A DNA stretch of 64,000 nt. Source: a phage. This document shows positions 13,705-57,893 of this stretch, piece by piece (position 1 is the stretch's first letter; the number at the start of each line of letters is the position of its first letter). The DNA is taken from the sequence record PQ724394.1, one strand, 5' to 3'. Under the pieces are notes generated by a model. That model was given only the letters and a program-made list of their open reading frames with translations, did not search any database and was not told where the DNA came from. The position numbers and the translations under genes are program-made.

Positions 13705-14064
13705 TTAAAGATGGTCAAGTGCTGGGTTGTGAGGTTTTTCTGCTTTAGTAGTGTTTTTGTGCCAATCTGATTTAGAGACACGAATTGCATCAGCGCCATA
13801 AGAACTCTTAAGGATGCCTTTTTTATTGTACACACTTACTGAAGTAAGAGAATCACCGTTCCAAGTAGCATGGACGAAGTTGGATTTAGATTTAAGCTCT
13901 TTAGCCAGGCTCTGATTAGTAGCCATAGAAGCAAAATCTTTACCCGTAACTTTAAAGACTTCAGACGGGTTCAGGCCTTCTTTAGCCTTAGCCAACTGTT
14001 CAGGCGACATACCTTCATTAATGCGTTGGGTAGATTCTGTAATAAATTCTTGATAAGTTTTCAT
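13705..14064 (-). CDS. internal-protein-like protein with capsid-targeting leader (119 aa)
   Basis: N-terminal MKTYQEFITE matches the T4 internal-protein capsid-targeting sequence; adjacent to denV/e as ipII/ipIII are in T4. Confidence 0.55.
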   Translation of the reverse strand: MKTYQEFITESTQRINEGMSPEQLAKAKEGLNPSEVFKVTGKDFASMATNQSLAKELKSKSNFVHATWNGDSLTSVSVYNKKGILKSSYGADAIRVSKSDWHKNTTKAEKPHNPALDHL

Positions 14065-20810: not shown

Positions 20811-21303
20811 TAAAGCGATTAAGCTTCCGTTGTTGTTTACGACTTTCTAATGTGTACTCAGCAGTTAAGATACCAAGCTCGGCTTTATCATAATTTTTAA
20901 TATCGGTGTAAGATGGTCGACGGTCGACCATTCCAAATACATCACCATTTTCTAAAGCCACATAGCATACTAAATGGTAATCATCGTCTGCTATATTAAG
21001 AAGCACACAATCATTGCTCTCATTTAAAGAATATACTGAATAACGTAGTCCAGCGAATTCCACTCGTTGAATAGCCAGATTTACGTCAATAATTTCCAAA
21101 GCATCTTCAAAAGAAAGGTCTTCAGCTAAAGCAAAAATAAAAGGTAATTTGGTAGTATCGCCACGGCTAGATGTTCTGCTTAAGAAATCGTTTGAATAGC
21201 CTAGGTCTTGGCGAATTCTATAAAGAACTGAATTGGTTTCATGGGAAAGACCACTATTTTTAAACCAATCAATATTTGATATAAGGTTATCATATAAACT
21301 CAT
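20761..21303 (-). CDS. hypothetical protein (180 aa)
   Basis: ORF in array. Confidence 0.5.
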   Translation of the reverse strand: MSLYDNLISNIDWFKNSGLSHETNSVLYRIRQDLGYSNDFLSRTSSRGDTTKLPFIFALAEDLSFEDALEIIDVNLAIQRVEFAGLRYSVYSLNESNDCVLLNIADDDYHLVCYVALENGDVFGMVDRRPSYTDIKNYDKAELGILTAEYTLESRKQQRKLNRFIAECREYAKEVQNGTA

Positions 21304-21326
21304 AATATTCTCCTCTCCTCCAAATA

Positions 21327-21344
21327 GGGAGACTTCGGTCTCCC
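21327..21344 (-). terminator. palindromic UUCG hairpin GGGAGAC-TTCG-GTCTCCC
   Basis: Perfect 7-bp stem hairpin between two minus-strand genes; identical 18-mer recurs at 59491..59508. Confidence 0.45.
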
Positions 21345-21351
21345 GGTAACA

Positions 21352-21945
21352 TTACTTAAGTGAATTGATGTAGTCTTCGATATCGGCTGAAGTCGTATCC
21401 ATTCCAACTTGAGGGCCTTTAAACGTTTCTACACGCATCAGTGTATCTTCAATATCAATCTTAGTCAGTGCAGCGATTTCAACAACGTCATCAGCAGTAG
21501 CAATACCAAGGGCGGCCATATTACGAGTTTCACGGATGTACTCGAGCTTAACGGCCAGTTCCTGACGAGAGTCATCAAGTTCCTTGACCTTCAGTTTAAT
21601 TTCATTACGCATTTCGATATAATCGTCAGCTTTCTTACGAAGTTGAGTAGCTGTACGACGATAAAGGAGGCCAAGTTTAGCATGCACCTGGACATCTGCA
21701 CCTTCTTTAATCAGTTTACGAATTTCGCGTTCTTTAGAAGCAGCCAGTTGGTCTTTTTCATTTGCCAATGCACGAATGCGTTTTTCTTCATTCACAGACT
21801 TAACATGAGCAGTCTGGAGTTCGGTAATTTTATCAATCAGGGTAGAAGCAGCTTTAGTATACTGGTCTTCGATTGACAGGTTCTGAGCCATCGCGGTACC
21901 CAGTTTAGAACGGATGAATTCAACAATTTTCTTTAAAGTATTCAT
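21352..21945 (-). CDS. coiled-coil protein, possibly PspA/IM30-like (197 aa)
   Basis: Start at ATG 21945 (MNTLKK) just downstream of promoter cassette; long heptad-like helical segments. Confidence 0.45.
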
Positions 21946-22018
21946 AGTATTTCCTTCAGTCGGTTGGTATTTTGTAATCCATGAGGACATTATACCCTGT
22001 CCTCTGAGGGTTGTAAAC
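21946..22018 (-). promoter_or_regulatory. early promoter with stem-loop, PeSL variant with canonical -10
   Basis: Minus-sense GTTTAC-N17-GTATAAT with inverted repeat GAGGACA/TGTCCTC bracketing the -10. Confidence 0.55.
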
Positions 22019-22020
22019 AT

Positions 22021-22419
22021 TTATTTCATTTTTGCGAGGCAAATTTCATTGGCTTCCCATTGAGCTTGCTTAATAATAGCTTTGGATACAGGAACCCTTT
22101 GGCCATAAGTTTTTGACGTTGAGAGAACAATATATTTGTTTGCCTCATTATGCCAACCTAGTGATTTTTCACCATGAGTACCTTTAATCACAGCTGACAC
22201 CTCAACAGAGCAACCACCATCAGAAATCTTGGTTTCTACAATCCATTCATTTCTCTCGACAGCTTCAATTTCCGATCTCCTTTTTTCTTCATACATGGCG
22301 GCCCAATCAGTTTTTGCCAAGCTGAAAGTAAGAGCTTTCTCTAATTCTTTGGCAGCTTTTTGTTGTTCGGGTGTTAATGAATTATACAACTCTTGCATTT
22401 CTTTATCTTCGATATTCAT
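22021..22419 (-). CDS. hypothetical protein (132 aa)
   Basis: ORF in array. Confidence 0.5.
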   Translation of the reverse strand: MNIEDKEMQELYNSLTPEQQKAAKELEKALTFSLAKTDWAAMYEEKRRSEIEAVERNEWIVETKISDGGCSVEVSAVIKGTHGEKSLGWHNEANKYIVLSTSKTYGQRVPVSKAIIKQAQWEANEICLAKMK

Positions 22420-22476
22420 TATGCTCTCCTCAAATTATAGGCTCATAATATCTCAATCATGAGCCCATGTAAACAA

Positions 22477-22740
22477 TTATTTCATATTATTGAAATAATC
22501 TTCCGCATCAAAATCGTTATCGTGATAAACTTTGGTAGACAATTTGACGTAACCTTCGGCAGCAAACATATTAACCACAACCTTTACGGTATACCATTGT
22601 CCATCATCATTACCCATTACTGCGTAAGTTTCAAATATGGGATGGTCATCACCTATAACCTTAATATCGTTAACAGTAGCACCAAATTCTTCAGGAACGC
22701 ATTTCATAAAGAAATTAAACAATTCACCGTAATTATCCAT
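22477..22740 (-). CDS. hypothetical acidic protein (about 87 aa)
   Basis: ATG at 22740 preceded by AAGGGGAG RBS and a PeSL-like promoter. Confidence 0.5.
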   Translation of the reverse strand: MDNYGELFNFFMKCVPEEFGATVNDIKVIGDDHPIFETYAVMGNDDGQWYTVKVVVNMFAAEGYVKLSTKVYHDNDFDAEDYFNNMK

Positions 22741-22804
22741 TTTACTCCCCTTCACACTGTTGTTTTGATAGGTCTATAGTATCACGTTTAAAGGAGGTGT
22801 AAAC
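22741..22804 (-). promoter_or_regulatory. PeSL-like early promoter cassette
   Basis: Minus-sense GTTTACACCTCCTTTAAACGTGATACTATAGACCTATCAAAAC. Confidence 0.6.
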
Positions 22805-22838
22805 AACTTTGTGAAATTATTTTTAGATTAAACCCCCT

Positions 22839-22858
22839 AAAAGGAGACCGAAGTCTCC
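22839..22858 (-). terminator. hairpin terminator candidate (GGAGAC-UUCG-GUCUCC)
   Basis: Minus-sense GGAGACTTCGGTCTCCTTTTAG downstream of the 22864..23481 gene. Confidence 0.45.
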
Positions 22859-22863
22859 TTTCA

Positions 22864-23481
22864 CTATTTACGAGTCTTTTCGAACTGAGCTGCGTCTCCG
22901 GCCAGACGACGTGCTTGACGAAGTTTGTTATCAATTTCTTCGCGCATAGGCTGGGTGTACTTAAGGCCTTCAACTGTCAGGTAAAGACGATAGAGGTCCG
23001 GCGTGTCCAGGTTGTTAATGTGTTGGCCGTTACGAAGGGCATTGAATTCACGAACAACCTGTTTTGTTTCAGATTCGATTTCTGAAATCAAAGAAGCTAG
23101 CTGGTTATATTTTTTAACAATAGTAGTGGTGTCAAACTTGATTTTAGATTTAGGAGCTTCTTTTACAGGCTCTGCTTTAGGCGCCGGTTTCGGTGCTGCA
23201 ACTTTGGTTGGGGCTGCTGGTTTAGCAACAGGAGCTTTAGCTGGTTTAGCAGGCTTAGTAGCGCCACCGGCTACGATATCTTTAAAAGCTTTGGAAGCTT
23301 TGTAATATTCTTTCTGGCTACTAGTATCAAAACCATACATATCATAAACGTTTTTAAAGAACTCAGTAGTGGTTTTAGTCCCGGAAATTTTATCATAAGC
23401 CGCTTGCCACATATCTTTAGTCATGCGCAAGCCGGCTTCACTCAGAACGCTTTCGTTCAAAAATTCATTGTAAGTTTTCAT
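22864..23481 (-). CDS. internal-protein-like protein with capsid-targeting leader and Ala/Pro/Lys-rich histone-H1-like region (205 aa)
   Basis: N-terminal MKTYNEFLNE leader; low-complexity PAKPAKAPVAKPAAPTKVAAPKPAPKAEP segment; TATAAATA late promoter upstream. Confidence 0.55.
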   Translation of the reverse strand: MKTYNEFLNESVLSEAGLRMTKDMWQAAYDKISGTKTTTEFFKNVYDMYGFDTSSQKEYYKASKAFKDIVAGGATKPAKPAKAPVAKPAAPTKVAAPKPAPKAEPVKEAPKSKIKFDTTTIVKKYNQLASLISEIESETKQVVREFNALRNGQHINNLDTPDLYRLYLTVEGLKYTQPMREEIDNKLRQARRLAGDAAQFEKTRK

Positions 23482-23509
23482 TATTGTTTCCTGTGTTAAT
23501 TAACTTATC

Positions 23510-23517
23510 TATTTATA
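23510..23517 (-). promoter_or_regulatory. late promoter TATAAATA (minus strand)
   Basis: Minus-sense TATAAATA about 30 nt upstream of the ATG at 23481. Confidence 0.55.
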
Positions 23518-23518
23518 C

Positions 23519-23546
23519 AAAAAAGGCCCAACCTTTTGGAAGGGCC
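23519..23546 (-). terminator. rho-independent terminator
   Basis: Minus-sense GGCCCTTCCAAAAGGTTGGGCCTTTTTT immediately downstream of the 23552..24106 gene. Confidence 0.6.
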
Positions 23547-23551
23547 GTAAA

Positions 23552-24106
23552 TCAGTTCTTGTAGAACCGGAACGGGTTCACGTGGAAGGCTAACATAGCT
23601 TTAGGGATTTTACGAGACAAAAGGCTCTTAAGCTTCCATCCACAGTACACGCGAAGGTAAAATGTGATTCCGCCGACCTTAAGATAAGGAACTGAAGCAA
23701 ATACACCCCAGGCATCATCATTCCACATCCATAACCAACCATGGTGGGCTTTATCAGGAGAACCTGATTCTACGTCAGGATTGCCGCGATAATGGAATTC
23801 TGAACTACAATCACGTCCTAGTTTATGATAAGCAAAGTTATAAGCTTTATTTCGCCATAGCCAAGCTACTCTCTGGAGATAAACACCACCAGGCATTTTC
23901 CTGATTTTAGCCCAACGTTTAATATGACCTTTATCGCCGTCAATTGGATTATCGTATGTCATCATCCAATCAAAACCGTATGGCAATTTACCAGTCTTTT
24001 TATTGTAGAAAGGAACCACAAAAGGCGCAAGGATAACAGCCAGAACCATAGAGATAAAATCTAGTGGGACCAACAGAATCCAACTCAAATATTTTAAAAG
24101 TTTCAT
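23552..24106 (-). CDS. membrane-anchored hypothetical protein (184 aa)
   Basis: N-terminal TM helix WILLVPLDFISMVLAVILAPFVV; flanked by two near-identical terminator/late-promoter modules. Confidence 0.5.
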   Translation of the reverse strand: MKLLKYLSWILLVPLDFISMVLAVILAPFVVPFYNKKTGKLPYGFDWMMTYDNPIDGDKGHIKRWAKIRKMPGGVYLQRVAWLWRNKAYNFAYHKLGRDCSSEFHYRGNPDVESGSPDKAHHGWLWMWNDDAWGVFASVPYLKVGGITFYLRVYCGWKLKSLLSRKIPKAMLAFHVNPFRFYKN

Positions 24107-24132
24107 ATTATTTCCTAAGTTAGTTTACTGTA

Positions 24133-24140
24133 TATTTATA
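24133..24140 (-). promoter_or_regulatory. late promoter TATAAATA (minus strand)
   Basis: Minus-sense TATAAATA upstream of the 23552..24106 gene. Confidence 0.55.
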
Positions 24141-24141
24141 C

Positions 24142-24169
24142 AAAAAAGGCCCAACCTTTCGGAAGGGCC
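24142..24169 (-). terminator. rho-independent terminator downstream of tRNA cluster
   Basis: Minus-sense GGCCCTTCCGAAAGGTTGGGCCTTTTTT; near-identical to the copy at 23519..23546. Confidence 0.6.
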
Positions 24170-24180
24170 TTTAACCTAGG

Positions 24181-24482
24181 GTAACCTTGTCGGGGTTCCA
24201 CCTGCTAGGCAAGTGTTTGTACGAAACGCCGGGATTCGAACCCGGTTATTAAGCAGTTGACGCTACTCAATATTTTTTTAAAAGGCCATATCTCGACCAT
24301 ATCCGAACGTTCCGTCAAAAACGCTACTCGGCTTACGGCAAAGATATTTCCTCGAATCGATAATTCGATGCGCCGTTTCAGCTGTGATAGTAAAGAACCA
24401 GAACACAGTAAAACTGTGGGAGGAACTATACTCCAGGGAACTTCAGTCCGACGACTTACCGGTAGCGACCCGGTTTCTTGTT
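24181..24482 (-). ncRNA. candidate structured stable RNA(s) or degenerate tRNA-like elements adjacent to the tRNA cluster
   Basis: No credible ORF; contains canonical T-arm-like CCGGG-TTCGAAT-CCCGG and several hairpins but no complete cloverleaf by hand. Confidence 0.25.
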
Positions 24483-24558
24483 TGGTCGAGACAGTAGGGA
24501 TCGAACCTACGACCCAGGACTTAGAAGGTCCTTGCTCTTCCTTCTGAGCTATGCCTCG
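24483..24558 (-). tRNA. tRNA-Arg (anticodon TCT)
   Basis: Hand-folded cloverleaf: acceptor CGAGGCA/TGTCTCG, anticodon loop CTTCTAA, T-arm GTAGG-TTCGATC-CCTAC, encoded CCA. Confidence 0.7.
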
Positions 24559-24562
24559 TATT

Positions 24563-24637
24563 TGGCGGACATGCATGGATTCGAACCATGGACCAATTGA
24601 TTAACAGTCAACTGCTCTACCGCTGAGCTACACATCC
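24563..24637 (-). tRNA. tRNA-Asn (anticodon GTT)
   Basis: Hand-folded cloverleaf: D-arm GCTC/GAGC, anticodon loop CTGTTAA, T-arm CATGG-TTCGAAT-CCATG, encoded CCA; acceptor stem has two G-U pairs. Confidence 0.6.
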
Positions 24638-24641
24638 GAAT

Positions 24642-24715
24642 TGGTGGCCCTGGGTGGAATCGAACCACCATCCAGCGATTATGAGTCGCTCGCTTGACCG
24701 TCCAGCTACAGGGCC
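24642..24715 (-). tRNA. tRNA with CAT anticodon (Met or lysidine-modified Ile)
   Basis: Hand-folded cloverleaf: acceptor GGCCCTG/CAGGGCC, anticodon loop CTCATAA, T-arm GGTGG-TTCGATT-CCACC, encoded CCA. Confidence 0.7.
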
Positions 24716-24800
24716 TTAATTCTATTATGAAAGGCTCTTTGAGGGAAGAACCTTTGGTAATAGAGGGTATTAATGATAGAGTAATAATATCACATAATTC

Positions 24801-25085
24801 TTAAAGCATATTAATGTAATCAAGTTTAATAGAAGCAATCTTCAAAGGATTTTTAAAGATGTCGTATTCGACCAACCCATTTTCATTTGCCGTATAAAAA
24901 GTAAAGTTAACAGAATTATAGCGTTGGCTGTTAACTTTGAGTTTAACATCGCTTGAACTACGGCCAATATTAACCTGTTGAACATCAAGCACAGCATCTT
25001 TGCCGTAATTTCGAATCAACAACTCAGCTGCAACCTGATCGGATTTATAGCCATTCTCTGGATTAGTAACCTTAACGTATAACAT
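24801..25085 (-). CDS. hypothetical protein (94 aa)
   Basis: ORF between tRNA cluster and ipI-like region. Confidence 0.45.
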   Translation of the reverse strand: MLYVKVTNPENGYKSDQVAAELLIRNYGKDAVLDVQQVNIGRSSSDVKLKVNSQRYNSVNFTFYTANENGLVEYDIFKNPLKIASIKLDYINML

Positions 25086-25490
25086 TTAACCCTCGTCTAC
25101 AATAGTGTGGGTATTGGCATTAACAATCTGCCACCAGCCAAAACGATTAGAACCGTAAAGAGGCTTATTCTCGTTTTCTTTAATGATATCGCGCAGTTCA
25201 TCTTCAGAGAAGGCTTTAGCGATTAAATCAGTATACCCACCGCGTGGATAATAATTATCACCCGCAAACAAAAGGAAATTTACCTTTCCGGAAGGAACAT
25301 ATGCTTCCTTAGGATACTTGTTTCCTGCATGGTCTACCACTTCAATATAACGGTAAGGAATATCAGTACTTTCAACCCATTGCCATGCTGCAGCAGGGGA
25401 TTCAAAAGCATCTACACCTAAACGATTATCTTCATCTTTAGACGGATTATTTTCGTAATCCGCATATACATAATATTCAATGTTCATCAT
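25086..25490 (-). CDS. hypothetical protein (134 aa)
   Basis: ORF in array. Confidence 0.5.
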   Translation of the reverse strand: MMNIEYYVYADYENNPSKDEDNRLGVDAFESPAAAWQWVESTDIPYRYIEVVDHAGNKYPKEAYVPSGKVNFLLFAGDNYYPRGGYTDLIAKAFSEDELRDIIKENENKPLYGSNRFGWWQIVNANTHTIVDEG

Positions 25491-25672
25491 TCACCTTTAG
25501 AGATTTTATCCATAACGAAAGAGATTGAACCAATTAAGAATGCCACTACTAAAGAGATTGTATTCTCGGAAGTTGTAAGCAAATCCAACATGAATCCTGC
25601 AAACATACTAAAGCCAAAAGCAGTAACGGCGGCCAGTGCAGTAACATTTCTAATTAATTCACAACGTTTCAT
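25487..25672 (-). CDS. small membrane protein (about 61 aa)
   Basis: ATG at 25672 preceded by GGAGAATAAA RBS and a PeSL-like promoter; two hydrophobic helices. Confidence 0.45.
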   Translation of the reverse strand: MKRCELIRNVTALAAVTAFGFSMFAGFMLDLLTTSENTISLVVAFLIGSISFVMDKISKGE

Positions 25673-25737
25673 TTTATTCTCCAATCACTCATTTGTTTTG
25701 ATAGGTCTATAGTATCATGCCTATAGACCTTGTAAAC
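25673..25737 (-). promoter_or_regulatory. PeSL-like early promoter cassette
   Basis: Minus-sense GTTTACAAGGTCTATAGGCATGATACTATAGACCTATCAAAAC; inverted repeat AGGTCTATAG/CTATAGACCT. Confidence 0.65.
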
Positions 25738-25749
25738 ATCTTTTTTAAA

Positions 25750-26004
25750 TTATTTTAGGTCTTCTAGACGTTTCTTCATCTTAGAGCCATTCTTAGCAAT
25801 TTCGCCAGCGTCTGAACATAGAGCCAAAAGGGCTTTAACTTTAGTCTGGTCACCTTTAAAGGAACTCGGGTCAACAGAATCAGCAAGTTCTTTAATACGC
25901 GCGAACAAACGTTCGGCTTCAGCTAAAGCAGTACCAAGTTTTACTTCCATACCGTGTGAGGATTCGGTTAGAGGTTGCGCAGAAAATTCTTGATAAGTTT
26001 TCAT
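25750..26004 (-). CDS. internal-protein-like protein with capsid-targeting leader (84 aa)
   Basis: N-terminal MKTYQEFSAQ leader; ipI position downstream of 57B. Confidence 0.55.
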   Translation of the reverse strand: MKTYQEFSAQPLTESSHGMEVKLGTALAEAERLFARIKELADSVDPSSFKGDQTKVKALLALCSDAGEIAKNGSKMKKRLEDLK

Positions 26005-26022: not shown

Positions 26023-26924
<902 letters not shown>

Positions 26925-55984: not shown

Positions 55985-56412
55985 TGTTCCTTATCCCTGA
56001 TGATTACGAATTAACTCTAGAAAGCGTAGAGGCCAAAATTCCAGAAGCACAGGGACGTTTTGCTACTCTTTCTGAAGCCCTCGAGAAAAGCGATATAAAT
56101 AATCTTGTAGAGAACATGATTGCTGATGGTGATATCGATACCGCTATTGCCATCGCCTCTTTGAATGAAAATATGGCTCTTAACGAATTTATCGTTAAGC
56201 ACGTCTCTTCTAAAGGTGAGCTTACTCGTACTAAAGATATTAAAACCCGTCAACGCAACGCTTATCAAACGACCGGGTTGTCTAAAGCAAAACGCCGTCA
56301 GATTGCTCGCAAAGCATCTAAAACCAAACGTGCTAATCCATCTATTCAAGTACGTGCCGAACGTAAGCGTAAGAAAGCTCGTTCTAAACGTAAAGCCTTT
56401 GGACTTAACTAA
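55984..56412 (+). CDS. 68: gp68 prohead core protein
   Basis: 142 aa (T4 141 aa); basic C-terminus; synteny. Confidence 0.8.
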
Positions 56413-57047
56413 TGAAACCTGAATTGCTCATCGAACATTGGGGACAACCAGGTGAAATTATCGATGGGGTTCCGATGTTGGAATCTCATGATGGAAAAGA
56501 TTCTGGACTTGCCCCAGGCCTTTATATAGAAGGCATATTCATGCAAGCCGAAGTGGTTAACCGTAATAAACGCCTTTATCCGAAACCTATTTTGGAAAAA
56601 GCTGTTGCTGATTATATGGCAGAACAGGTTGCTACTAAACAAGCTTTAGGAGAATTAAATCATCCGCCTCGTGCTAACGTCGACCCTATGCAAGCCGCTA
56701 TTATTATTGAAGATATGTGGTGGAAAGGTAATGACGTTTATGGACGTGCTCGTATTATTGAAGGCGACCATGGTCCTGGTGATAAACTAGCTGCTAATAT
56801 TAGAGCCGGTTGGGTGCCTGGTGTTAGTTCTCGTGGTCTAGGTTCTTTAACCGAAACCAATAAAGGATATAAGCGTGTAAACGAAGGTTATAAATTAACC
56901 GTCGGTGTTGATGCAGTATGGGGTCCATCTGCTCCTGATGCTTATGTAACTCCTAAACAAATTACAGAATCACAAACGGTAGATACCGATACCAGTGCCG
57001 ATGACGCCTTTATGGCTCTCGCAGAGGCCATGAAAAAAGCGTTATAA
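56412..57047 (+). CDS. 21: gp21 prohead core protease
   Basis: 211 aa (T4 212 aa); synteny between gp68 and gp22. Confidence 0.9.
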   Translation: MKPELLIEHWGQPGEIIDGVPMLESHDGKDSGLAPGLYIEGIFMQAEVVNRNKRLYPKPILEKAVADYMAEQVATKQALGELNHPPRANVDPMQAAIIIEDMWWKGNDVYGRARIIEGDHGPGDKLAANIRAGWVPGVSSRGLGSLTETNKGYKRVNEGYKLTVGVDAVWGPSAPDAYVTPKQITESQTVDTDTSADDAFMALAEAMKKAL

Positions 57048-57077: not shown

Positions 57078-57893
57078 ATGCTTAAAGAACAACTGATCGC
57101 CGAAGCACAGAATATTGATGCTTCCGTTGCTCTTGACAGTATTTTCGAATCAGTTAATATTTCTCCGGAAGCAAAAGAAACTTTCGGCACTGTATTCGAA
57201 GCTACCGTCAAGCAACATGCCGTTAAACTGGCTGAATCTCACATCGCTAAAATCGCTGAAAAAGCGGAAGAAGAAGTTGAGAAAAATAAAGAAGAAGCTG
57301 AAGAAAAAGCTGATAAGAAAATCCAAGAAGCTGCCGGTCGTTTCCTTGACCATGTTGCTAAAGAATGGATGGCTGAAAACCAGCTGGCTGTTGATAAAGG
57401 TATTAAAGCCGAACTGTTCGAATCCATGTTGATGGGTATGAAAGAACTGTTTGTTGAACATAACGTGGTTGTTCCAGAAGAAGCAGTAGACGTTGTCGCT
57501 GAAATGGAAGAAGAATTGGCTGAACAGAAAGCTGAAACCGCTCGTTTGTTCGAAGAAGTTGGCAAGCGTGACGCATATATTAATTACGTACAGCGTGAAC
57601 AAGCTGTTATGGAAGCAACTAAAGACCTGACTGAATCTCAGAAAGAAAAAGTTAGTTCTCTGGTAGAAGGCATGGATTATTCCGATGCATTTGGTAAAAA
57701 AATTGGCGCTATCGTTGAAATGGTTAAAGGCCAGACTGACGTTGAAAAACCAATCACCGAAGCCGCTATAAATAAAACTGAAGACGATGCTGCAGCACTG
57801 AATTACATTTCGGAAGCAGTTGAAGAAAAAGGCGCTAAGCCTACCCTGTCCTTCGCGGACCTGTCTGCAATCGCAGCATCTCGAATTTCTTAA
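57078..57893 (+). CDS. 22: gp22 prohead core scaffold protein
   Basis: 271 aa; E/K-rich helical; synteny. Confidence 0.9.
   Translation: MLKEQLIAEAQNIDASVALDSIFESVNISPEAKETFGTVFEATVKQHAVKLAESHIAKIAEKAEEEVEKNKEEAEEKADKKIQEAAGRFLDHVAKEWMAENQLAVDKGIKAELFESMLMGMKELFVEHNVVVPEEAVDVVAEMEEELAEQKAETARLFEEVGKRDAYINYVQREQAVMEATKDLTESQKEKVSSLVEGMDYSDAFGKKIGAIVEMVKGQTDVEKPITEAAINKTEDDAAALNYISEAVEEKGAKPTLSFADLSAIAASRIS

Follow-up and report, generated by a model that had tools for sequence, protein, structure and literature searches.

A predicted capsid-targeted internal protein with a basic interdomain linker encoded by a Dhakavirus

The open reading frame (ORF) at positions 22864..23481 on the minus strand of a 64,000-nucleotide phage sequence (PQ724394.1, referred to here in its full length as the window) has an ATG start and a TAG stop and encodes a protein of 205 amino acids (aa). 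The window derives from a Dhakavirus, i.e. a JS98-like T4-type Escherichia coli phage, and the ORF is an allele of JS98 orf135 (94.6% amino-acid identity), which is labelled "hypothetical protein"; its product is therefore called Orf135 below. Our analysis indicates that Orf135 is probably the precursor of a T4-type internal protein (Ip), which would be packaged, trimmed and injected, with anti-defence as its likeliest role. That the protein is packaged, loses its propeptide after Glu10 and/or Glu15 and is injected can be inferred with good support, because the capsid-targeting sequence (CTS) matches that of T4 at the functionally mapped positions, the late promoter box is conserved, and the cognate gp21 and gp22 are encoded in the same window. 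By analogy with T4, the likeliest role would be that of an injected anti-defence protein, non-specific DNA association being secondary, because T4 Ip1, Ip2 and Ip3 all inhibit GmrSD enzymes and because domains are swapped within the Orf135 family. The evidence comprises the features of the sequence and how they are conserved, the head-processing genes in the window, the fold prediction and the replacement of cassettes among related phages; from it, packaging, cleavage, injection, DNA contact and an anti-defence role are deduced. The family is a so far unannotated addition to the CTS-bearing internal proteins of T4-type phages and has a notable modular design.

According to the favoured scheme, late transcription of the gene would start from a TATAAATA promoter and cover a unit with a stem-loop at either end, and the N-terminal MKTYNEFLNE would act as a CTS, bringing the protein into the gp22 scaffold core inside the prohead. 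The propeptide would be removed by gp21 after Glu10 and/or Glu15, and the mature protein, of ~21-22 kDa and with an isoelectric point (pI) of ~9.7, would stay among the packaged DNA and be injected with it. The linker would serve as a polycationic tether, probably touching DNA, or at an earlier stage the acidic scaffold, through non-specific electrostatic interactions. Once injected, the protein would disable one of the host's first lines of defence; its C-terminal domain would determine specificity, and the basic linker would act as a tether or spacer.

The capsid-targeting sequence and the head-processing machinery

The leader MKTYNEFLNE, which the first-pass annotation of this DNA had picked out as the start of the ORF, is identical at 7 of 10 positions to MKTYQEFIAE, the CTS of T4 IPII and IPIII. 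Mutagenesis of the T4 CTS by the Black laboratory, as reviewed, assigned targeting mainly to residues 4 and 7 and processing to residues 8 and 10, and the 10-residue T4 CTS alone is sufficient for packaging foreign proteins (PMC9026906). At residues 4, 7, 8 and 10 Orf135 carries Y, F, L and E versus Y, F, I and E in T4, so that three of the four mapped positions are identical and the other is a conservative Ile-to-Leu exchange. Two cleavage sites are predicted (Table 1), the Glu10 site preceding Ser11 and the Glu15 site preceding Ala16. In T4, both IPII and IPIII, which start with MKTYQEFIAE, and IPI, which starts with MKTFKEF...ITE, are cut before Ala. Of the two, the Glu15 site is conserved more widely within the family: the pattern (L/I)-(S/T/N)-E-(A/S) lies ahead of G-x-R-M-T-K in nearly all homologues, including those lacking Glu10, and every full-length homologue combines a CTS-like start with an N-terminal (L/I)xE site.

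The window also contains the head module with gp20, gp67, gp68, gp21, gp22, gp23 and gp24. Because its gp21 and gp22 are 89% and 77% identical to the T4 proteins, the T4 rules of targeting and cleavage should apply here. Collectively, the mapped CTS positions, the conserved late box and the presence of gp21 and gp22 favour the proposal of the first-pass annotation that the ORF encodes a packaged, capsid-targeted internal protein.

Table 1. Features of the orf135 locus and of the head-processing genes in the window
Feature	Position	Strand	Basis or remark
Capsid-targeting sequence (propeptide) MKTYNEFLNE, codons 1-10	23452..23481	-	predicted gp21 cut after Leu8-Asn9-Glu10
SVLSE, codons 11-15, second predicted gp21 site Leu13-Ser14-Glu15, cut before Ala16	23437..23451	-	[LI]xE scan
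Predicted N-terminal three-helix domain, residues 16-74	23260..23436	-	AlphaFold2; predicted local distance difference test (pLDDT) score 91 when modelled alone
Disordered Ala/Pro/Lys-rich basic linker, residues 75-111	23149..23259	-	net +7; K 24%, A 30%, P 27%
Conserved helical C-terminal domain, residues 112-205	22867..23148	-	helices 119-150, 161-174, 177-204; pLDDT 73-93
Putative T4-type late promoter box TATAAATA	23510..23517	-	28 nucleotides (nt) upstream of the orf135 ATG
Shine-Dalgarno-like AGGA	23489..23492	-	7 nt before the ATG; read from the sequence
Hairpin with U-run, intrinsic-terminator-like end of orf136	23520..23546	-	adjoins the late promoter; U6; RNA fold -14.5 kcal/mol, z = -3.0
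Stem-loop directly after the orf135 stop (core GGAGAC-UUCG-GUCUCC, then UUUU)	22838..22863	-	RNA fold -15.2 kcal/mol, z = -3.1
Sigma-70-like promoter TTTACA-16-TACTAT for e.8	22776..22803	-	promoter scan
gp21 prohead protease, expected to remove the CTS	56412..57047	+	phrog_207 at 2.4e-76; 89% identical to T4 gp21
gp22 scaffolding core protein, expected target structure of CTS-bearing proteins	57078..57893	+	phrog_237 at 3.4e-90; 77% identical to T4 gp22

An inventory of CTS-like ORF starts that covered the 64-kb window yielded only four, with N-termini at 14064, 23481, 26004 and 26232, and tblastn with T4 IPII and IPIII matched exactly those four N-termini in the window. Beyond them, no homologue of T4 IPI, IPII or IPIII was found in the window. 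The three other CTS-like ORFs all lie on the minus strand. The one at 25750-26004 encodes 84 aa starting with MKTYQEFSAQ and matches phrog_3499, "internal head protein"; that at 26023-26232 has a GTG start, encodes 69 aa and matches phrog_23867; and that at 13705-14064 encodes 119 aa starting with MKTYQEFITE and matches phrog_3966, "unknown function". No Pfam domain was found in any of the three, and no exact TATAAATA lies directly upstream of the ORFs at 25750-26004 and 26023-26232.

Domain architecture, the basic linker and comparison with T4 internal proteins

The AlphaFold2 model divides the protein after the CTS and the second cleavage site into a three-helix N-terminal domain, a disordered linker and a helical C-terminal domain (Table 1). 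Helix 3 of the N-terminal domain carries the conserved residues K57, Y59, K61 and K67, and the C-terminal domain holds a conserved loop, LRNGQ-x-NNL-x-TPDLY. The low-complexity segment described in the first-pass annotation, PAKPAKAPVAKPAAPTKVAAPKPAPKAEPVKEAPK, was recovered exactly, at residues 77-111. Ala, Pro and Lys account for 30 of the 37 residues between 75 and 111 (81%) versus 20% of the rest of the protein, and 10 of its 12 prolines lie there. The pLDDT falls below 50 for residues 74-110, with means of 32-39 for 10-residue blocks over 81-110.

Comparison with homologues of intermediate divergence (p000v, CHI14 and P0013) gave identities of 76-81% for the N-terminal domain and 65-71% for the C-terminal domain, versus 27-32% for the linker. 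Across the homologues examined, the linker spans 22-54 residues with 12-32% Lys, 14-27% Pro and a net charge of +3 to +10, and the predicted mature proteins of the family have a pI of 9.3-9.8. Since identity falls fast while the character of the segment is kept in all homologues, the linker appears to be constrained in composition and charge and not in sequence. Only a marginal 9-nt, 2.6-copy repeat was detected in the linker DNA by Tandem Repeats Finder, so the linker did not arise by recent repeat expansion. The segment resembles Ala/Pro-rich interdomain linkers, such as the lipoyl-domain linkers of 2-oxo-acid dehydrogenase E2 chains or the Lys-Pro/Glu-Pro spacer of TonB, in being disordered or extended, variable in length and placed between folded domains, with composition kept and sequence not. 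It differs from them in its net positive charge, and because this charge is found in every family member examined, selection for charge besides flexibility is suggested.

The conserved net positive charge of the linker fits non-specific electrostatic DNA contact, as reported for the internal proteins of T4, which associate with DNA under low-salt conditions and are purified together with gp22 (PMC9026906) and whose lysines alone contact the DNA phosphates in solid-state nuclear magnetic resonance (PMC3012670). By analogy, a packaged basic protein such as Orf135 would thus be DNA-associated almost by default.

The T4 internal protein IPIII (Ip3; Pfam PF26861) closely resembles Orf135 in overall properties. 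Its CTS has been compared above, and the similarity to Orf135 extends to about residue 25 (..KDEW in IPIII, ..KDMW in Orf135). The mature IPIII* has 183 aa, 20.4 kDa, a pI of 9.65, 14% Lys and a net charge of +10, and the predicted mature Orf135 has 195 aa, 21.8 kDa, a pI of 9.66, 13% Lys and a net charge of +12. Both are encoded by non-essential accessory genes of T4-type phages, and processing by gp21 is expected for both. However, IPIII is without a low-complexity linker, and ipIII lies next to gene e, whereas orf135 lies between the tRNA cluster and e.8. No match of Orf135 to PF26861 was obtained at E ≤1 in Pfam, and BLASTP and hhalign aligned residues 1-25 only (25 columns in hhalign, probability 59%). 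That Orf135 is a divergent IPIII was considered and rejected, since the profile-profile alignment stops at residue 25 and Yersinia phage fHe-Yen9-01 has both proteins. Orf135 is therefore an IPIII analogue outside the IPIII family.

For IPI* (Ip1) and Ip2 as for Orf135, a CTS-type propeptide is deduced, as are late packaging and injection. Their genes are likewise hypervariable and cassette-type, with alleles exchanged between related phages. In IPI, the 19-residue propeptide ends with ITE before Ala, comparable to the LSE before Ala at the second site of Orf135. In contrast, the mature sequences of Ip1 and Ip2 are unrelated to Orf135, which is about twice as large and consists of two domains joined by a disordered linker.

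Cassette exchange in the family and the weighing of alternatives

By tblastn, the gene was found in 144 phage records, in each of which it is a "hypothetical protein" or unannotated, and the genera include Dhakavirus, Mosigvirus, Karamvirus, Kanagawavirus, Winklervirus and Tegunavirus, together with T4-like Klebsiella phages. When 1.84 billion cluster representatives were searched exhaustively with a profile, only 13 proteins were retrieved. The family members that are complete at the N-terminus all have a CTS-like start. Among PHROGs, Orf135 matches only phrog_2280, "unknown function", and searches of Pfam, NCBIfam, PADLOC and Protein Data Bank (PDB) profiles gave no significant family.

Replacement of gene bodies at a fixed locus is seen in two Kanagawaviruses, Kosakonia phage 305 (L007:1501-2157) and Enterobacter phage CIP9 (L010:1501-2127). 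Their DNA is 83% identical upstream and up to about codon 23, unrelated in the gene body, and 94% identical from just after the stop codon, and the break in homology falls just past the CTS and the cleavage sites. The CIP9 type has the same class of N-terminal domain and an Ala/Pro/Lys-rich linker followed by an unrelated C-terminal domain. In the family at large, at least three types of C-terminal domain and several types of N-terminal domain occur in varied combinations. These observations suggest that orf135, an accessory gene of the cassette type, lies in a plastic region and that its alleles are exchanged via the conserved CTS-coding 5′ end; such behaviour has been described for ip genes and for hyperplastic regions that carry stem-loop and promoter cassettes (PMC2839356, PMC3012670). 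Compared with the JS98 allele (L001:6001-6618), nucleotide identity is 97.7% over codons 1-74 and 89-91% from the linker to the stop codon. This uneven divergence suggests, at the sequence level, that even among close relatives there is a recombination junction in or close to the linker. The codon differences between the two alleles comprise 31 synonymous and 11 non-synonymous changes, an excess that points to purifying selection on the gene.

Tandem paralogues are present in fHe-Yen9-01 (L004:3001-3570 and L004:3580-4116). The downstream one encodes 178 aa starting with MLEYSEFLKE and has a different type of N-terminal domain, a short Lys/Ala/Pro linker and a helical C-terminal domain that keeps TPDLY. 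In Klebsiella phage HMGUkp2 (L008:1249-2070), the annotated start lies too far upstream and overlaps a tRNA-Thr gene; the real start is the internal MLKFKDILAE, which gives a protein of 195 aa.

The anti-defence function proposed for Orf135 has its precedent in T4, in which the three internal proteins Ip1, Ip2 and Ip3 inhibit GmrSD type IV restriction enzymes, each a different one (PMC12373910; bioRxiv 10.1101/2022.04.14.488369), and IPIII is required for infecting ECOR17 (bioRxiv 10.1101/2022.04.14.488369). Several findings weigh against this interpretation of Orf135 as an injected internal protein. Homology to Ip1-3 was not found past the first ~25 residues, so that a role against GmrSD enzymes is suggested by analogy alone. 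Scans of Orf135 with Pfam, NCBIfam and PADLOC detected no known anti-defence or defence-related domain, a Pfam scan found no effector domain in the alternative C-terminal domains or the neighbouring CTS proteins, and no domain or fold match pointed to a specific target of inhibition. A third [LI]xE site, Ile132-Ser133-Glu134, lies inside a helix of the C-terminal domain, and cleavage there, if gp21 has access, would yield a mature product other than that proposed here. Since fHe-Yen9-01 carries both a member of the Orf135 family and a true IPIII homologue (P0040) elsewhere in its genome, the family is not simply a replacement of IPIII. Finally, the literature searched gave no experimental evidence of virion presence, cleavage or injection for Orf135 or any homologue; the paper on Jiaodavirus ValerieMcCarty with its supplements contained no matching peptides, and that on Karamvirus ECLFM1 identifies its protein bands in a figure only.

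An alternative, close to what the first-pass annotation had proposed, is that Orf135 is a phage "linker histone", in which the Lys/Ala/Pro segment and the three-helix domain condense or charge-neutralise the packaged genome and coat the entering DNA against nucleases. The linker is indeed net positive in every homologue despite its quick sequence turnover, the whole mature protein is basic throughout the family, helix 3 presents conserved Lys and Tyr residues (K57, Y59, K61 and K67), and the internal proteins of T4 touch DNA phosphates through their lysines, as described above. However, no sequence match to histone-like families was found in Pfam, NCBIfam or the PDB, and among the Pfam and NCBIfam matches at E ≤1 no Hc1/Hc2 or AlgP-type profile appeared, only the sub-threshold Stm1_N, DUF1627, DnaX tau and SgmX. 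Orf135 likewise has no sequence homology to the linker histones H1 and H5, and no wing is predicted in its model. Unlike the terminal Lys-rich tail of H1/H5, the segment is internal, contains 24% Lys with a net charge of +7 over 37 residues, and is without the S/TPKK motif ([ST]P[KR][KR]). Its Lys content and charge density are about half those of an H1 tail. Given the missing motif, the lower Lys density and the interdomain position, the "histone-H1-like" character claimed for this segment, with its 27-32% identity among homologues, comes down to a weak analogy, a resemblance in composition only. Pure DNA coating would also leave unexplained why the linker precedes the most conserved domain of the protein, and the swapping of C-terminal domains looks like effector diversification. 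T4 phage lacking the internal proteins shows normal growth on standard hosts (PMC9026906) and can thus do without DNA condensation by them. We therefore consider the histone-like explanation unlikely. The related suggestion that Orf135 protects the injected DNA is plausible as such, but protection by coating is less likely than protection through inhibition of host restriction enzymes, as by T4 Ip1-3 (PMC12373910).

It is more improbable still that Orf135 is an accessory factor of head assembly, whose basic linker would bind the acidic gp22 in the prohead core and aid core formation with no role after injection. The near-identical size, pI and Lys content of IPIII*, together with the lack of an IPIII homologue in the window, would agree with such a function, as would the strongly acidic gp22 of this phage and the co-purification of T4 internal proteins with gp22; moreover, T4 IPIII mutants accumulate polyheads (PMC9026906), and loss of IPIII halves the rate of head assembly. 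Nevertheless, one would not usually expect an assembly factor to be patchily distributed and exchanged as a cassette, as this family is, fHe-Yen9-01 has a member of the family alongside IPIII, and IPIII itself is a GmrSD inhibitor (PMC12373910). The least credible alternative is that the protein is not packaged at all and acts as a late cytoplasmic protein, its CTS-like N-terminus being a by-product of recombination among ip-type cassettes that share their 5′ ends. This would be in line with the lack of virion data in the literature searched and with the first ~23 codons serving as a recombination anchor common to unrelated gene bodies, yet in at least seven genera the four mapped CTS positions and an (L/I)xE site downstream of them have been retained, in contrast to the remainder of the N-terminal region, which diverges; this argues for selection on the CTS signal itself. 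In T4, furthermore, the 10-residue CTS alone suffices for the packaging of foreign proteins (PMC9026906).

Starting again from the favoured interpretation of Orf135 as an injected anti-defence protein, a wider and rather doubtful extension would see the whole family as a modular delivery chassis, composed of the CTS, the three-helix domain, a polycationic tether on the packaged genome and interchangeable C-terminal warheads, possibly directed at a class of nucleases distinct from the targets of T4 Ip1-3. Dhakavirus, Mosigvirus, Kanagawavirus and Tegunavirus are among the genera for which arabinosylated bases derived from cytosine are predicted (PMC13326640), and because the family occurs in these genera, its target may be another class of modification-dependent nucleases than that of T4 Ip1-3. 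If this extension were true, the tether would keep an anti-restriction warhead attached to the DNA that enters the cell first, the design would have converged on the "globular domain plus basic tail" of linker histones, and recombination would swap the warheads, with its anchors in the CTS-coding 5′ end and in the cassettes of stem-loop and promoter that flank the gene.

The host encounters internal proteins before any other protein of the phage. It was only in 2025 that the T4 trio was shown to be specific inhibitors of different GmrSD enzymes (PMC12373910), and the CTS-bearing proteins of other T4-type genera are mostly unannotated. The Orf135 family is thus a candidate source of new anti-defence activities in two genera, Dhakavirus and Mosigvirus, whose phages find wide use as therapeutic coliphages, and flagging it as a probable injected protein corrects the database annotation. 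The natural CTS-plus-linker module could also be used for engineered protein delivery by T4-type capsids.

Transcription signals and genomic setting

The late-promoter box noted upstream of the ORF by the first-pass annotation is present and recurs at homologous loci, exactly or as GATAAATA. Within the window, TATAAATA occurs in 16 copies versus 7.4 expected, about a two-fold excess that none of 100 shuffles reached, and because the octamer is already this frequent, a lone copy is weak evidence of a promoter. The case is carried by conservation among homologous loci, eight of which were compared (JS98, fHe-Yen9-01, PG7, p000v, Kosakonia 305, CHI14, CIP9 and HMGUkp2), and this conservation supports the assignment as a putative late promoter. 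The exact box lies 27-35 nt upstream of the homologue ATG in JS98, fHe-Yen9-01, PG7 and p000v, and the one-mismatch GATAAATA takes the same place in Kosakonia 305, CHI14 and CIP9. By genus, the late box is kept at the homologous loci of Dhakavirus, Mosigvirus, Karamvirus and Tegunavirus, and its one-mismatch form is found in Kanagawavirus and Winklervirus.

Counterparts of the stem-loop that follows the orf135 stop codon were found 3′ of the gene in JS98, p000v, HMGUkp2, CHI14 and Kosakonia 305, and a GTTTAC motif lies 3′ of the stem-loop at homologous loci also. The downstream stem-loop and the e.8 promoter together would form a PeSL-like cassette, in the sense of the stem-loop and promoter cassettes described for hyperplastic regions (PMC2839356).

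A 42-nt direct repeat with 93% identity, at 23510-23551 and 24133-24174 on the minus strand, comprises the hairpin, the T-run and TATAAATA; this pattern occurs twice in the window versus none expected. The two copies bracket orf136 (23552..24106, DUF7338, with a membrane-like N-terminus). The repeat appears to be a duplicated "terminator plus late promoter" cassette, which would make orf136 a late gene as well, and the repeat pair could provide a means for the insertion or loss of orf136. The same cassette of terminator and late promoter lies 5′ of the orf135 homologue in Mosigvirus p000v.

Over positions 21000-26000, identity to JS98 and related phages is 91-96%. The local gene order is 1, 57A, 57B, two small CTS ORFs, trna.4-.2, three tRNAs, orf136, orf135, e.8 and e.6. 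In T4, the small RNAs rnaC and rnaD occupy the position of orf136 and orf135, and ipIII and ipII lie on the far side of gene e. An ORF on the plus strand at 23003..23305 (100 aa, Gly/Ala/Leu-rich) is the antisense mirror of the low-complexity linker coding sequence and is almost certainly no gene. Between the tRNA-Arg gene and the orf136 promoter, ~340 nt of the minus strand (24141-24482) are non-coding, where T4 has the stable RNAs rnaC and rnaD. Within this segment, ARAGORN reports an odd 97-nt "tRNA-Phe(aaa)" at 24219-24315, which is without confirmation by Rfam, the latter finding only the three canonical tRNAs.

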